From positions 1-31,669 of IMG/VR virus record IMGVR_UViG_3300022670_000078: DNA of 31,669 nucleotides. One strand, 5' to 3'. Below, piece by piece: positions 5,948 through 13,627 of this stretch; within the stretch, counting starts at the first letter, position 1, and the number at the start of each line of letters is the position of its first letter. The translations under genes and the position numbers were made by a program. The notes beneath the pieces were generated by a model, which did not search any database, had not been told where the DNA came from, and worked only from the letters and a program-made list of their open reading frames with translations. This stretch comes from a virus (taxonomy: Duplodnaviria > Caudoviricetes).

Positions 5948-6148
5948 ATGTACGTATGTAATTGCTATGGTGTAACAGAACAGGATGTCATACAACTAGC
6001 TGCAAGCGGCAGTGTTACATTCAAGGAAGTGGCACGGTACCTCAAGGACAAAGGTAGCTGTTGTAAGTGCTTGCCTAAAACGTTGGAGGTGTTTCGTGAG
6101 GAGTACTCGAAGAACATTACGTGGCACTACAGCCCACCCATTGGCTAA
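5948..6148 (+). CDS. bfd: bacterioferritin-associated ferredoxin (Bfd)-like [2Fe-2S] protein
   Basis: MYVCNCYGVTE...GSCCKC with Cys4, Cys6, Cys38 and Cys41, the Bfd C-x-C...C-x2-C spacing; AGGAG SD. Confidence 0.85.
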   Translation: MYVCNCYGVTEQDVIQLAASGSVTFKEVARYLKDKGSCCKCLPKTLEVFREEYSKNITWHYSPPIG

Positions 6149-6161
6149 GCTACCCAAGGCT

Positions 6162-8078
6162 ATGCTTAAGGCATTGCCTAAGTTCTTACTGATGCCAGAC
6201 CCTGACATATATTTGTCGGATAATTTTATAGTAATAGACTTAGAGACTAACACTAAGGGAGATGCACGTAGCCCTCAGCCTTGTTGGCCTGCTAACAGTA
6301 TCGTATGTGGTAGCTGGTGCATTGGGATGAGAGGTGAGGCACACAATGTATATGGTAATGAGTTAGAGATGGGGGAGTTAGTAGAAGCAATGGAGGATGC
6401 TGACTTTATCATAGCTCACAACGGTAAGTTTGATACGGGATGGTTGCAACGAGCAGGCATAGACCTACGCAAGCTGATACTGTATGACACCATGATAGCT
6501 GAGTACTGTCTCAATGGTAACTTACAGACGGAGCTATCGTTAGATGCCCTGTCCACTAGTTACCTAGGCAAGAGCAAGGCACCTTACATTAACCTATGCA
6601 TGAAGGGGAAGGTAGACCCTGAAGACATGCCACGTAGCAAGCTGATTGACAGGTGTAACTGGGACATACTACAAACCCGTGACTTATTCTTGCATCAGTT
6701 GGATGTAATCTGTGAGAGGGGTATGCTTGGCCACGTATACACTAGGTGTCTGTTGTCTACAGCCCTAGCTTCTATCGAGTCTATGGGCATGCACATTGAT
6801 GCAGATGCAGTGAACACACGTTACCGTGAGTCTGCTGTCAAGCTAGCAGCCGCTAGTGCAGAGTTAGATATATTCACAGGAGGTATCAACCCCCGTAGTC
6901 CTAAGCAAGTGAAGGAGTTTGTGTACGAGGTACTTAAGTTCAAGCCCAAGCGTAGAGGCAAGGAGCCGATATACAGTACCAAGATAGATGACCTACTGCA
7001 GCTGAAGGCTACCACTAAGCGCCAGCGTGAGTTTGTCAGGCTTAAGAAGGAACACTCGAAGTACAATGCAGAGGTGACTAAGAACTTACTGTTCTTTCAG
7101 GGAGTAGCAACGGACAAGCGAGATGATATACCTGAAGGGGTATTCTATGCACAGTTTAACCAGTGTGTCACCAAGACTCACAGGCTGAGCAGTAGTGGTA
7201 TCAAGCGTACCTTTGCACACTTGCTAGATGATAAGGGCAAGGAGATAACTAAGTCAGTACAGTTTCAGAACTTTAGTAGACAGTTCAAGCCTTGTTTCTC
7301 CCCTCGTAAGAAGGGATGGGTGATGGGTGAAGCTGATGGTAGTCAGTTGGAGTTCAGGGTTGCAGCCTTCTTAGGTCAGTGCCCCGTAGCTACACAAGCT
7401 ATCGTTAATAACTTAGATGTCCACACAGACACGATGAACGTACTCTGTGATGCAGGCCAGCCTACCACTAGGCAGGAAGCTAAGCCTCATACGTTTAAGC
7501 CCTTGTTTGGGGGCATGAGTGGCACGGATGCTGAGGTTAAGTATTACAAGTGGTTCAATGAACACTACTCAGGGATAGGCAAGGCACAGCAGGGATGGAT
7601 TGACACAGCACTAAGGACTAAAGAGGTGAAGATGCTACACGGCTTCAGCTTCTTCTTTCCTGACTGTCACATGCAACGTAGTGGGTATGTTACCAACAGT
7701 ACCAACATTAAGAATTACCCGGTGCAACACTTTGCAACAGCAGAGATAATACCGATAGCTGTGTTCTATATGTGGCACGCTATGAGAGATATGGAATCAT
7801 TCTTGGTTAACACCATACATGACTCCGTAATATCCGAGGTACATCCTGATGAGCATGAAGAGTTTAAGGAGTACAGCCTGCACGCATTTACAACATGTGT
7901 GTACCACTACCTCAAGGAAGTGTACGGAGTAGAGTTTAATGTACCACTAGGCATAGGCGTTAAGCTTGGTGAGCCTCATTGGGGTACAGGGAAAGAAGTT
8001 AAATGTGTTCCACTACCTCCGTATGAGATGGAAGGTATTGATTACACTGAATTAATAACGGAGTGGATAGATGACTAG
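6162..8078 (+). CDS. polA: family A DNA polymerase with 3'-5' exonuclease
   Basis: ExoI DLET, ExoII AHNGKFD, motif A DGSQLEFR, motif B RQEAKPHTFKPLFG, motif C IHDS; frame open from 6012, real start probably 6141 (TTG) or 6162 (ATG). Confidence 0.95.
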   Translation: MLKALPKFLLMPDPDIYLSDNFIVIDLETNTKGDARSPQPCWPANSIVCGSWCIGMRGEAHNVYGNELEMGELVEAMEDADFIIAHNGKFDTGWLQRAGIDLRKLILYDTMIAEYCLNGNLQTELSLDALSTSYLGKSKAPYINLCMKGKVDPEDMPRSKLIDRCNWDILQTRDLFLHQLDVICERGMLGHVYTRCLLSTALASIESMGMHIDADAVNTRYRESAVKLAAASAELDIFTGGINPRSPKQVKEFVYEVLKFKPKRRGKEPIYSTKIDDLLQLKATTKRQREFVRLKKEHSKYNAEVTKNLLFFQGVATDKRDDIPEGVFYAQFNQCVTKTHRLSSSGIKRTFAHLLDDKGKEITKSVQFQNFSRQFKPCFSPRKKGWVMGEADGSQLEFRVAAFLGQCPVATQAIVNNLDVHTDTMNVLCDAGQPTTRQEAKPHTFKPLFGGMSGTDAEVKYYKWFNEHYSGIGKAQQGWIDTALRTKEVKMLHGFSFFFPDCHMQRSGYVTNSTNIKNYPVQHFATAEIIPIAVFYMWHAMRDMESFLVNTIHDSVISEVHPDEHEEFKEYSLHAFTTCVYHYLKEVYGVEFNVPLGIGVKLGEPHWGTGKEVKCVPLPPYEMEGIDYTELITEWIDD

Positions 8079-8535: not shown

Positions 8536-8742
8536 ATGGCACATGTACGCATAGTAACGATAGGTAAGGGTACTACCCTCCGTAACATAAAGATGGATGG
8601 GTGTACTACGAAAGCATTAAACCAAGCAGCCAATACACTAGAGTCTCTGATACACCAAGAGAGGGACATACTCTCAGTGGAGGTAGACTACACAGGCTGT
8701 GATGATAGTAAGACTGTCGAAGGGCACAACCCATGCCAGTAA
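8536..8742 (+). CDS. hypothetical protein
   Basis: AAGGAG SD; packed. Confidence 0.7.
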   Translation: MAHVRIVTIGKGTTLRNIKMDGCTTKALNQAANTLESLIHQERDILSVEVDYTGCDDSKTVEGHNPCQ

Positions 8743-8927
8743 TATACAAGGCGTTGCACACAGGTAACAAGAACCCATGGAGCCGGGAAGAGATGCAGTA
8801 TATATTAGACCATCATAAGGAAAACTTCGTAGAAGAATTAGCAGTACACTTAGGTAGAACAGTATCAGCCGTTAAAGGCAAAGCTCATGCAATGGGCTGT
8901 AGTATTAAATCAAAAGGTATTAAATAA
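8733..8927 (+). CDS. small HTH (Myb/SANT- or GcrA-like) DNA-binding protein
   Basis: PWSREE..IL...ELAVHLGRTVSAVKGKAHAMG. Confidence 0.75.
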   Translation: MPVIYKALHTGNKNPWSREEMQYILDHHKENFVEELAVHLGRTVSAVKGKAHAMGCSIKSKGIK

Positions 8928-9610
8928 TGTCAGACCATGTTGAAGGTATAGTAGCAAAGATTACTGAGAAAGCCACACGTAATGGGGGCACCATATACAA
9001 TGTGTGCTTAGAGATAGATGGCGCAGATGATGAGTGGTTTGGCCACGGATTCGAGGAGCCTGCATTCCAAGAGGGTGATGAGATTGAGTTCGATATCTCT
9101 TACAACGGAGACTACTGCAACGTAGACCCGAACACAGTTAACATCCTGAGTGAAGGAGAGCCTAAGCCTCGTGGCCGTAGCAGCGGAGGCAGAAGTGGTG
9201 GACGTAGTGGAGGTGGGCGTAGCAGTAAGCCTGCAGGTCGTTCAGGAGGAGGTCGCAGTAGCAGTAGAAGTTCCAAGCCTGCATCTAAGCCTGCAAGAGG
9301 CAAGTCATCAGGGGGTGGTGATAAGCCTGCCACTATGAGCAAGGAGGAGTGGGCACAGAAGGATAAGATTATACGCAGACAAGCGTGTATGAATACAGCC
9401 ATCGCCCTTATTGGTACGGCTGTTAAGTGTGAACTAGTGGCACTGCCTGCTAAGAAAGCTGACAAGCTTGATGCATTCGTTGCCCTGTGTGATGAAGAGG
9501 CTGACCGCCTGTATGACCAGTACGAGGAACAGGTGTACGGCAAGAAAGAAGCAAAGCGAGGTAGTCGCAAGTCCCGTAACGATGACTACGACGATGACAT
9601 CCCAGAGTAG
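8927..9610 (+). CDS. ssb: single-stranded DNA-binding protein
   Basis: N-terminal OB-fold-like region, G/S/R-rich linker, helical domain, acidic tail DDYDDDIPE; lies between polymerase and exonuclease. Confidence 0.8.
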   Translation: MSDHVEGIVAKITEKATRNGGTIYNVCLEIDGADDEWFGHGFEEPAFQEGDEIEFDISYNGDYCNVDPNTVNILSEGEPKPRGRSSGGRSGGRSGGGRSSKPAGRSGGGRSSSRSSKPASKPARGKSSGGGDKPATMSKEEWAQKDKIIRRQACMNTAIALIGTAVKCELVALPAKKADKLDAFVALCDEEADRLYDQYEEQVYGKKEAKRGSRKSRNDDYDDDIPE

Positions 9611-9656
9611 CGCCAGCGGGGACACCATTTACTTTGATGATGACATACCATTTTAA
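9582..9656 (+). other. +1-frame segment encoding a canonical bacterial SSB tail (...GDTIYFDDDIPF*)
   Basis: Frame open 9468-9656 with ATGs at 9582 and 9594; overlaps the SSB stop. Confidence 0.6.
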
Positions 9657-9679
9657 ATAGAGGGGAGCAATCCCCTATT
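9656..9679 (+). promoter_or_regulatory. GNRA-capped hairpin (stability element or weak terminator)
   Basis: AGGGGA-GCAA-TCCCCT at 9661-9676; no U-tract. Confidence 0.55.
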
Positions 9680-9688
9680 GGAGGTAAC

Positions 9689-9997
9689 ATGGAAGCAGAT
9701 GAGCTACGTAAATTAGTATTACAATTCGTAGAACAAGCATCCCCTATTGTTATGGTGTCCACGGGCACCGAGTCAGGCATATTAGATGTGCAGGGTACGC
9801 TATCCTTATGGATGCAGGTACCTGACTGTAGTTACACTGCCATGTTCTTAGGATGGGCACTCGCATCAGGCCATGACATCAACAGCTTCAGTCCGAAAGA
9901 ACTAACACAGGCTGTACAGACAGCCCTAGTAGGGGACAACAAGAACGTGATGTTCGACTGGCTAGGGGATGCCGATGCTAGCGACAAGCCTCACTAA
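9689..9997 (+). CDS. hypothetical protein
   Basis: GGAGGT SD. Confidence 0.75.
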   Translation: MEADELRKLVLQFVEQASPIVMVSTGTESGILDVQGTLSLWMQVPDCSYTAMFLGWALASGHDINSFSPKELTQAVQTALVGDNKNVMFDWLGDADASDKPH

Positions 9998-10006
9998 GGA
10001 GTCACC

Positions 10007-11068
10007 ATGGGTAGGACAAGTAGGTACGATAAACAGAATGTATTAGTACTTGATAGTGACAGCAGTGTATACGCTATCGGTTTCGTTACTGAGACTAAAG
10101 AGCATTACCTGTATGGACTTGATGGGGTGCTATGGCAAGGAACGGATAAACGAGAGCTTAACAAGTGGCAGAAGGAGAACGACCCTAATAAGCAACTAAC
10201 GTATGACTTCACAGTGCACGTTGCACCTGTTAGTCATGCACTTTCATCAGCTAAGAAGTTTGTAGCCAATACACTGGCATTCACAGGCTGTAGCAGGGTG
10301 ATAGTATTGCTCACTAAGGGAGGTAACTGCTTCAGGCACCACTTAGCTACCATCCAACGGTACAAGGGTAACCGCATTAACATGCAGAAGCCTGCACATT
10401 ATGATGCTATCCGTGAGTACTACATGACATACCATGGAGCTAAGATGTATGACAAGTGGGAAGCAGATGATGCAGCTTGTATGGCCTTACATAGAGGTAG
10501 TGGTGTTGAAGGTATCTCGTATGTACTAGGCACAATAGACAAGGATTTAGCACAGCAACAAGGGAGACATGTTAACCCGTCCAAGAAGGACGAGGGTGTG
10601 TACACTATCAATGAAGTGGAAGGGTGGTATAACTTCTACCATCAGCTACTCATGGGCGATAAGGCTGACCATATCAAAGGGCTAAGCGGTAAGCGCGGTG
10701 CCCCCGGTATTGGTGCAGCTAAGGCACACAAGCGGCTATCAGCTGCAGGGAATAACATCTCCCACATGTGCCAGATAGTGTACGATGAGTACGTGATTAA
10801 GTACGGAGCAGAGGAGTTCAACTACATACCATGGTGGTGTGAGGAAGAGATGAATCCTGACGCAGAGTTTGCGGATAGACCTAGAGTATTGAAGGGCACA
10901 GCCCTTACAATGTTTAGAGAGAATGCAGACTTACTGTACATGCTACGTACACCAACAGACCAGTACCTGCCACATTGCAGGGTGTTGCTTGACCAATGGG
11001 ACAAGTACCCCGAGGGTACAGCATACCACTTCTTACCTGATAAGGAAGAGACTGATGATGAAAGTTAA
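10007..11068 (+). CDS. 5'-3' exonuclease/RNase H (T7 gp6/FEN-like)
   Basis: VLDSDS, YKGNR, WEADD, IDKDL, LMGDKADHIKG, GIG motifs. Confidence 0.92.
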   Translation: MGRTSRYDKQNVLVLDSDSSVYAIGFVTETKEHYLYGLDGVLWQGTDKRELNKWQKENDPNKQLTYDFTVHVAPVSHALSSAKKFVANTLAFTGCSRVIVLLTKGGNCFRHHLATIQRYKGNRINMQKPAHYDAIREYYMTYHGAKMYDKWEADDAACMALHRGSGVEGISYVLGTIDKDLAQQQGRHVNPSKKDEGVYTINEVEGWYNFYHQLLMGDKADHIKGLSGKRGAPGIGAAKAHKRLSAAGNNISHMCQIVYDEYVIKYGAEEFNYIPWWCEEEMNPDAEFADRPRVLKGTALTMFRENADLLYMLRTPTDQYLPHCRVLLDQWDKYPEGTAYHFLPDKEETDDES

Positions 11069-12898: not shown

Positions 12899-13627
12899 AT
12901 GGCAGCACGTAAGTTAACAGTATACAAAGAAGCAGCACAGGCACTAGCACAGTTTGAGAAAGACTATGGCAGTATCCTAGTTGATTGCTCCACCCCTAAG
13001 GGGATGAAGTCGGCTAAGGATTGTCGTAAAGAGATACGAGATGCACGTAGTAACCTAGAGGATTTACGCAAGGAAACTAAAGAGCCTGCACTAGCCAAGT
13101 GTAAGCAGATAGACAGCGAAGCCAAGGCTATCAAGGAGAAGCTGGATGTCCTCTTCACGAAGTTCGACAGCGGCATTAAAGCTATTGAAAACAAGAAAGA
13201 AATTGAAGCAAAGGAGAAGGCGGATGCAGTACTTAAGCATGCAGATGAACTCGATGCAAGAGAAGCAGCCATCTACGCCAAGGAGATTGAGCTTGGACTT
13301 AGAGAACCAGATGATGAGCACCTACCTGAGGGAAGTGCCGACACTGGTGACAGTGGTGGTGATACTGAGCACCTTAATCGCAGTCCTCGTAATAAGCGTA
13401 AGCTAGAAGAGTCTATAGCAGAGCTAGATGATTCAGCAGAACAAGTGAGCACTATCTGTGAACCACACATCAAGGTGGCAGCTGAAAGACTACATGTACT
13501 TAAGCGTATACGTGCTCTGGTAGAGCCTACGGATGCACAGCCTACTGGGGAGATAGACGAAGAGATAGCCCGCACACATGACGAGGTAATAGCTGAGGTG
13601 TGGGAGCTAGTCGATGTCTTCAAGTAA
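12899..13627 (+). CDS. coiled-coil phage protein
   Basis: RSNLEDLRKETKEPAL..KQIDSEAKAI heptads; acidic linker; GGAG SD. Confidence 0.8.
   Translation: MAARKLTVYKEAAQALAQFEKDYGSILVDCSTPKGMKSAKDCRKEIRDARSNLEDLRKETKEPALAKCKQIDSEAKAIKEKLDVLFTKFDSGIKAIENKKEIEAKEKADAVLKHADELDAREAAIYAKEIELGLREPDDEHLPEGSADTGDSGGDTEHLNRSPRNKRKLEESIAELDDSAEQVSTICEPHIKVAAERLHVLKRIRALVEPTDAQPTGEIDEEIARTHDEVIAEVWELVDVFK

Follow-up and report, generated by a model that had tools for sequence, protein, structure and literature searches.

Results

Gene organization and predicted structure of the SSB-like protein

The DNA analyzed here (31,669 nt, hereafter the window) is a phage fragment that encodes primase, helicase, DNA polymerase A, an SSB-like protein, exonuclease, and PhoH on one strand, with its virion genes on the opposite strand to this replication module. 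The SSB-like gene sits between DNA polymerase A (6012-8078) and the exonuclease (10007-11068), and a D5-like regulator (8733-8927) adjoins its start. Elsewhere the window contains an HNH or anti-sigma-like ORF (1844-2209) and a DUF1351-like coiled-coil ORF (12899-13627). The features of the locus are the following.

8927..9610, plus strand: SSB-like gene, frame 0, 227 aa, the proposed short isoform ending in DDDIPE (ORF list, 94 homologues)
8927..9151, plus strand: N-terminal beta-barrel, predicted OB fold, residues about 1-75 (AlphaFold and structure search)
9158..9337, plus strand: Gly/Ser/Arg-rich linker (sequence; pLDDT <50 at residues 83-92 and 94-116)
9341..9538, plus strand: conserved two-helix segment, residues 139-204 (AlphaFold helices 139-167 and 177-204; conserved columns)
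9590..9607, plus strand: first acidic tip, DDDIPE, which lacks the Phe (sequence; family termini)
9599..9611, plus strand: putative recoding cassette AUC-CCA-GAG-UAG-C (RTC-CC, GA[ACG]-stop, closed -1 frames)
9609..9656, plus strand: +1-frame extension of 15 codons, SASGDTIYFDDDIPF then TAA, without a credible start codon (equivalents in 30 other loci)
9636..9653, plus strand: second tip, DDDIPF (sequence), identical to the bacterial SSB C-terminal consensus (available text of PMC3045619)
9661..9676, plus strand: GCAA-loop hairpin that closes the transcript segment after the extension stop (sequence folding)
9689..9997, plus strand: next gene, 102 aa, with a strong Shine-Dalgarno (SD) sequence, outside the recoding unit

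In the AlphaFold model of the 227-aa protein, a beta domain predicted with confidence (residues 3-75) is followed by a linker of low confidence and by two helices; the overall pTM is 0.36, and pLDDT values are 82-93 over residues 1-80. The top structural matches of the beta domain were LEF-3, RPA, SSB, and PriB (Z 8.8-10.8, rmsd 2.4-2.8 over 73-75 residues), led by LEF-3 (Z 10.8, rmsd 2.8 over 74) and including archaeal RPA (Z 9.1, rmsd 2.6 over 75) and Coxiella SSB (Z 8.8, rmsd 2.5 over 73); the SSB and PriB matches lay at Z 8.8-9.1, and matches from the Atlas structures also included OB folds. This whole-protein search barely probed the two-helix segment. The protein had no Pfam or PHROG match, a PDB sequence search returned no meaningful match, and 31 of 142 distant family members matched phrog_18140, a family of unknown function. 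All eight phage records matched by the protein are from Vibrio or Enterovibrio phages, and the three that were opened are all assigned to Zobellviridae. SSB traits are present in the flexible linker, the acidic tail, and the position within a Zobellviridae-like replication module. We infer that the protein is an SSB from its predicted fold, acidic tail, and gene context, without a curated-family match.

A second tip, DDDIPF, lies out of frame beyond the stop codon

The 227-aa protein terminates in DDYDDDIPE, followed by TAG at 9608-9610. A first-pass annotation of this DNA reported that this frame-0 DDDIPE-TAG is overlapped by a +1 frame ending in DDDIPF-TAA, and both ends were confirmed in the window sequence. 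The +1 frame has its first start-type codon at TTG 9468, crosses the TAG, and ends in FDDDIPF with TAA at 9654-9656; an IPF-stop occurs just this once across the six frames of the window. The same annotation noted that the +1 frame is open from 9468; we attribute this upstream openness to chance because its 57 codons were reached by 21% of 2000 synonymous-codon nulls. The IPF tail beyond the stop, in contrast, exceeds chance. Among the distinct stops of frames of at least 100 codons that were examined, 31 of 416 were continued by an IPF-ending or acidic-IPF frame, comprising 28 stops of the SSB-like family and three tails of annotated genes. Beginning 4 nt past the extension TAA, the hairpin at 9661-9676 has a 6-bp stem (AGGGGA/GCAA/TCCCCT, -10.6 kcal/mol); it carries no U-tract and was not called by terminator prediction. 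A public contig covering 9476-10100 showed 0 differences and 0 gaps, a comparison of contigs only and possibly with the source sample itself. Positions 9631-9660 also had an exact 30-nt match, with unrelated flanks, in a contig of another sample from the same study, which is probably another SSB tail.

Conservation of the extension in related phages

Among the frame-0 proteins of 94 homologues, the closest of which show 70-76% identity, 52 end in IPE, 9 in IPQ, 9 in IPD, and 5 in IPY, and none ends in IPF. We compared the DNA 3' of the stop in 36 distinct close loci (L numbers below) of this marine phage family. Removed beforehand were partial or broken matches (L029, L059, L061), a sequence whose contig ends 26 nt from an in-frame TGA (L030), sequences with no stop on the contig (L046, L049, L056, L060), the apparently chimeric L055, and repeat copies of a contig or sequence. 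In 31 of the 36 loci, the stop is overlapped or followed by an extension that has no conserved start; the comparison of related phages suggested in the first-pass annotation shows retention of both the stop and the downstream tail in these loci. These 31 loci are relatives rather than independent cases. The extension lies in the +1 frame in 22 loci, in the -1 frame in eight, and in frame 0 behind a TGA in one; the use of -1 and 0 frames, like the presence of whole domains in the extension, goes beyond the earlier description of the locus.

Three extensions (L041, L043, L054) run off their contigs and were counted by homology only. The 28 complete ones end in IPF-stop in 24 cases, and the other four continue for about 25 residues after IPF. 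Bare-tail extensions span 10, 15, or 22 codons. Domain extensions of 80-110 aa are predicted to form an SH3/KOW-like barrel (model pTM 0.65), with a structural match to Spt5 KOW (Z 8.8, rmsd 2.0 over 61), and Cys4-module extensions measure 43-46 aa. Capping of IPF by about 25 conserved residues was seen in the -1 extensions of L024 and L051-L053, and capping by E or EQ in frame 0 was seen in Vibrio breoganii phages (L013 2211, L014 2283); a capped tip should bind unlike a free one.

The five close loci that lack an extension are L016 (IPQ), L026 (VPY), L027 (VPD), L013 (IPFE), and L014 (IPFEQ), of which L016 is a near neighbor of the window that has lost it. None of five distant family members (L057, L058, L082-L084) has an extension, and a hidden IPF tail followed 0 of 14 non-family DDDIP[E/D/Q]-stop matches examined as a control. 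L063 and L090, non-family proteins that appear SSB-like by eye and end in DDDIPE or DDDIPQ, likewise have no hidden IPF tail. A hairpin resembling that at 9661-9676 follows the extension stop in phage VpV262, L015, L018, and L045, and a similar one lies shortly after the frame-0 stop in the five close loci without an extension; hairpins are absent after most long extensions.

In a tree built from 33 of the 36 proteins, without the N-terminally cut L028, L047, and L048, the window pairs with L015. L018, with a short extension, is sister to L031, with a domain, and L034, with a domain, is sister to L035, with a Cys4 module; since both members of each pair use the +1 frame, the register outlasts module loss and swap. 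The deep branches, including the one that pairs the cultured phages VpV262 and 1.077.O, are long and unsure. In the wider family, nine of 145 proteins end in PF in frame 0, which argues that the tip is native to the family; the extension-bearing clade appears, from this distribution, to have moved the family's IPF tip behind a stop. Glu is the terminal residue of 68 of the 145 wider-family proteins (P0095-P0239), compared with 17% Glu in the preceding nine residues.

The extension-domain scan of viral contigs found one already-known locus among the matches listed, the phage collection held no match to the domain, the genome collection held no relative, and scans with individual proteins of distant members turned up one known locus and otherwise nothing. 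An in-frame fusion of the extension domain was found in 0 of 23 candidates in what was a weak search.

Extensions in cultured phages

In VpV262, ORF22 ends in EEDDE at GAG-TAA-G, and the 321-nt unannotated gap that follows holds a 95-codon +1 frame ending in DDDIPF-TAG, with a U-tract hairpin directly 3' of the extension stop. This 95-codon segment had no other match among phage records. Phage 1.077.O of Enterovibrio norvegicus, with a frame-0 protein of 215 aa and a predicted fused form of approximately 314 aa, has GAG-TAA-T followed by 99 +1 codons ending in FDDDIPF, which its record annotates as a separate gene from an internal ATG. Neither phage has Pro at the site, and all that the two share there with the other loci is the acidic tail and the GAG-stop, which favors the stop as the site. 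Directly after the hidden extension, VpV262 also carries ORF24 (L080 2446-2703), a small SSB-like gene with its own start that ends in DDDIPF; with both, VpV262 would have two IPF-bearing products.

Coding constraint in the extension

Over extension codons 1-79 of six ungapped +1 loci, pN/pS was 0.18, compared with 1.88 and 1.41 in the other frames. For codons 1-9 immediately after the stop in +1 loci the value was 0.28 (0.69 and 4.17 in the other frames), and ratios of 0.21 and 0.30 were obtained for one Cys4 pair and for four -1 loci, respectively. Judged by these ratios, the extension is under purifying selection in relatives from right after the stop. All values come from relatives, the 15-codon tail of the window having no close relative for comparison. 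The synonymous variation proposed as a check in the first-pass annotation was found among the short forms (window, L015, L018), which keep the acidic IPF-stop with synonymous differences. At codon 8 of the +1 domain extensions (e.g., L023 2755-2757), Glu is encoded by GAG in 12 of 12 loci, whereas GAG makes up less than half of the Glu codons in gene bodies.

Proposed recoding site and mechanism

The pattern of conservation makes it probable, in our view, that two SSB isoforms are produced by ribosomal frameshifting at the terminal AUC-CCA-GAG-UAG. The majority of ribosomes would end translation at UAG 9608 and release the 227-aa DDDIPE form, and a minority would shift to +1 at AUC-CCA-GAG-UAG-C and add 15 residues ending in DDDIPF, such that the extension would be translated as a fusion to the SSB-like protein. 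A low shift efficiency may be tolerable because SSBs are abundant. Production of two SSB forms by recoding was the first possibility raised by the first-pass annotation, and this part of it is well supported by the conservation and by the selection right after the stop. Of the two sites it offered, the GAG-UAG-C region at the gene end is supported as the recoding region; AAA-G at 9545-9548 is not, as AAA-G occurs within the last 25 codons in only 6 of 31 loci and at differing positions.

The location of the site is narrowed from both sides. On the 3' side the entry point is limited by selection that acts from codon 1 onward, and on the 5' side by the -1 frame, which in five -1 loci closes 3 codons before the stop. 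Of the 29 extension loci that contain Pro, 28 carry RTC-CC, compared with 0 of 3 loci without an extension, and GA[ACG] precedes the stop in 27 of 31 extension loci, the last codon being GAG in 16, GAC in six, GAA in five, and a Ser codon in four. If one site is common to all loci, it would be Ile/Val-Pro-X-stop, at 9599-9611 of the window.

For the step itself, we propose that the ribosome shifts by +1 while the stop, preceded by the acidic/Pro nascent tail, occupies the A site, without good P-site re-pairing; this would yield a 242-aa protein. The sequence evidence leans modestly toward this step rather than toward tRNA-Pro slipping by -2 (243 aa). In the available text of PMC3082878, frameshifting at a stop is described as raised by the nascent peptide and by the penultimate residue; the same text also cautions that high-level frameshifting can be incidental. 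Against a +1 shift at the stop, tRNA-Glu by our reading of the sequence pairs poorly on the +1 codon AGU, and a case described in the accessible part of PMC5009743 gave only very low product without re-pairing. The portion of PMC10861913 at hand concerns non-programmed shifts and has no bearing on the SSB-like locus.

No SD-like element lies 5' of the site, where the window codons are GAC-GAT-GAC-ATC-CCA (relatives were judged by eye), and the 11 +1 domain loci compared show no conserved RNA structure (consensus -0.88 kcal/mol, 0 compensatory pairs). No classical slippery site or matched hop common to all 31 loci fits. Suppressor tRNAs were found neither in the window, which covers part of a genome of probably about 44 kb, nor in 1.077.O, nor in five viral records, two of which are extension-bearing and incomplete; VpV262 has one tRNA-Pro(TGG), and across these sequences no tRNA gene tracks with the extension. 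The tRNA-Pro(TGG) gene, identified by ARAGORN (L085 45250-45327, minus strand) near the right terminal repeat, is absent from the record annotation, and the genome end that would match this region lies outside the window.

The same two isoforms could arise by another step, in which peptidyl-tRNA-Pro slips back on U-CCC one codon before the stop: by -2 onto UCC in the +1 loci (window 9600-9602) and by -1 from CCG to CCC in the -1 loci, where a 3' hairpin would assist. We regard this as the less likely route, though a serious one, and its probability is counted inside that given to the two isoforms. The RTC-CC distribution fits it, as does codon usage: Pro is CCG or CCC in 23 of 29 loci at the site compared with 18 of 170 Pro codons in gene bodies, and ATC accounts for 85 of 258 Ile codons in gene bodies. 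C-CCG is present in 8 of 8 -1 loci, and a 3' hairpin occurs in L024 and L051-L054 with one compensatory pair and four one-sided changes. Precedents in the available text of PMC5009743 are a Pro-codon shift in phage PSA and a -2 shift in Mu. This step is, however, inapplicable to VpV262 and 1.077.O, which have no Pro at the site; CCG is also found in nine +1 loci, the loci owe their common codon bias to descent, and C_CCG gave only 1.8- to 3.6-fold over background in Escherichia coli despite a pseudoknot (PMC4066793, available text). For the -1 loci, serial +1/+1 shifting can also be considered. A +1-frame stop, past which another +1 shift would lead into the frame of the extension, lies within 2-4 codons of the frame-0 stop in seven of the eight (L020, L025, L050-L054) and not in L024, such that serial shifting would fit seven of the eight and fails L024.

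A more general and more doubtful proposal extends the +1 shift at the stop to an escape from the stop that needs no slippery codon, driven by the acidic tail and by Glu or Asp before the stop. Ribosomes would resume in whichever frame (+1, -1, or 0) the downstream module uses, and the SSB stop would act as a plug-in socket for exchangeable host-docking cassettes. The candidate cassettes found at the stop are a bare DDDIPF tip, an SH3/KOW domain, and a Cys4 module.

Alternative explanations

The short tail of the window might instead be an untranslated domain remnant, with recoding of the domain confined to relatives. Loss does occur within the same clade, as L016 shows, and the window tail allows no dN/dS; against this, the three short forms fall in two separate clades, are all in +1, and retain an intact acidic IPF-stop despite synonymous differences. 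We therefore consider a remnant improbable.

A translational hop to a matched downstream codon in whichever frame, or stop readthrough, would account for all three frames being used. L045 (GAG-TGA-GAA) and L015 (GAG-TAG-T-GAG) have the exact geometry of a stop hop, and VpV262 has a strong hairpin 10 nt past the stop (81 nt, -26.7 kcal/mol). Nevertheless, only 13 of the 31 loci have their first matched triplet within 45 nt in the frame of the extension, seven loci, the window among them, have none, and selection on codons 1-9 leaves no coding gap. This mechanism is quite improbable for the family, and the specific version of a matched-codon hop was rejected, being in frame in 13 of 31 loci from the last codon and in 10 of 31 from the Pro codon.

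Independent initiation of the extension, as a small protein or an SSB-tail mimic peptide, is very improbable. In favor of this reading, the 1.077.O record begins the extension at an internal ATG, in-frame fusions were missing among longer proteins (weak evidence), and a TTG with a moderate anti-SD duplex lies right after the stop in three loci. There is, however, no conserved start or SD for the extension in the 31 loci. The first full codon past the stop encodes Leu in 11 of 12 aligned loci as CTG, TTG, CTA, or TTA, and a codon written in four ways is not a start. L031 and L051 have no ATG, GTG, or TTG between the stop and the conserved LxxGD strand, so that their first start codon comes only after conserved residues, and the L051 extension frame, traced 5' from the stop, closes after 3 codons. 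Furthermore, the L015 frame runs for only 10 codons after the stop, and the internal ATGs of the Cys4 forms would cut off the first Cys. The peptide that the first-pass annotation suggested, beginning at ATG 9582 or 9594, fares no better: its anti-SD duplexes are weak (-0.2 and +0.3 kcal/mol, respectively; the next gene reaches -9.9 kcal/mol), and no more than 9 of the 31 loci have an ATG in the 12 codons upstream.

A one-base assembly error or recent insertion that broke a single doubled tail, also raised at first pass, is effectively refuted by the layout conserved in relatives, including cultured, independently sequenced phages, by the matching contig without an indel, and by the frame-0 ends of the homologues (IPF in 0 of 94, IPE in 52), even though the window sequence is backed by contigs only and not by raw reads.

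Proposed function of the two tips

The terminal Pro-Phe of E. coli SSB occupies a pocket of its partners, and the addition of one Gly (SSB+Gly) abolishes chi binding, indicating that the terminal Phe must be free; DDDIPF is given as the consensus of the bacterial SSB C-terminus (PMC3045619, in the part available). Because a free terminal Phe is required in E. coli, a Glu-ended tail should bind poorly. By analogy, the long form would supply the working tip and the Glu-ended form would bind partners poorly. A free C-terminal acidic-Ile-Pro-Phe is provided by 24 of the 28 complete extensions and by none of the 94 frame-0 products. We suggest that the Phe-ended minority may recruit host SSB-interacting enzymes, with ExoI, RecQ, chi, and primase as candidates, to phage DNA and that the Glu-ended majority may coat DNA without titrating them. 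If so, recoding would set how much host repair and replication machinery phage DNA recruits, the tuning knob being the share of SSB subunits with a working DDDIPF tip. Mimicry by DDDIPF has been proposed for prophage DUF669 SSBs (available text of PMC13687109).

Comparison with known systems

Known phage frameshifts concern mostly virion and tail-assembly proteins, as far as the available text of PMC5009743 describes them. The proposed arrangement resembles the frameshift extensions of tailed phages (lambda G/GT; capsid or tail proteins of T3, T7, A2, PSA, and A118) in pairing a short major with a longer minor product. In that group, according to the same partial source, the direction of shift differs between relatives, modules are exchanged, and frame-indifferent extensions and useful low-efficiency shifts are known. 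Unlike the G/GT or capsid extensions, the SSB-like gene encodes a predicted replication protein to which a host-type tip is added, and its site has no X_XXY_YYZ heptamer or CCC-stop. With respect to the classical -1 signal, the window extension is in +1, and the eight -1 loci have a weak C_CCG tetramer with a hairpin in five.

Like the shifty-stop +1 systems (prfB CUU_UGA, Listeria phage tsh CCC_UGA, and E. coli pheL), the locus has an A-site stop, a +1 overlap, and a possible nascent-peptide contribution (PMC3082878 and PMC5009743, available portions). As in prfB, a conserved coding +1 frame without its own start overlaps the stop. Unlike in prfB, the P-site codon (GAG, GAA, or GAC) re-pairs poorly in +1, an SD-like sequence is missing from the position 3 nt before the shift codon, the stop is UAG or UAA rather than UGA, and relatives also use the -1 and 0 frames. 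T4 gene 60 bypassing is similar in having a stop right after the last sense codon, and a downstream hairpin is found in some of our loci, but the window has neither a matched landing codon nor a coding gap. Judged by its sequence, the SSB-like site fails the defining site features of both prfB-type and gene-60-type recoding. Matching no standard bacterial signal, it would be missed by motif-based frameshift finders and by gene callers; the 95-codon extension has no annotation in the VpV262 record, and that of 1.077.O is entered in its record as a gene of its own. Neither a frameshifted SSB tail nor recoding of VpV262 ORF22 was found in the full-text literature, a survey made up of listings and abstract openings with few subscription papers.

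The protein shares with bacterial SSBs the identical DDDIPF at a free C-terminus and a flexible linker to a predicted OB fold; it differs from them in that the tip is encoded out of frame, a two-helix segment is added, and no Pfam or PHROG SSB family is matched. As far as sequence comparison reveals, what is particular here is a proposed recoding with no classical signal, extensions in three frames, exchangeable modules, and the presence in cultured phages.
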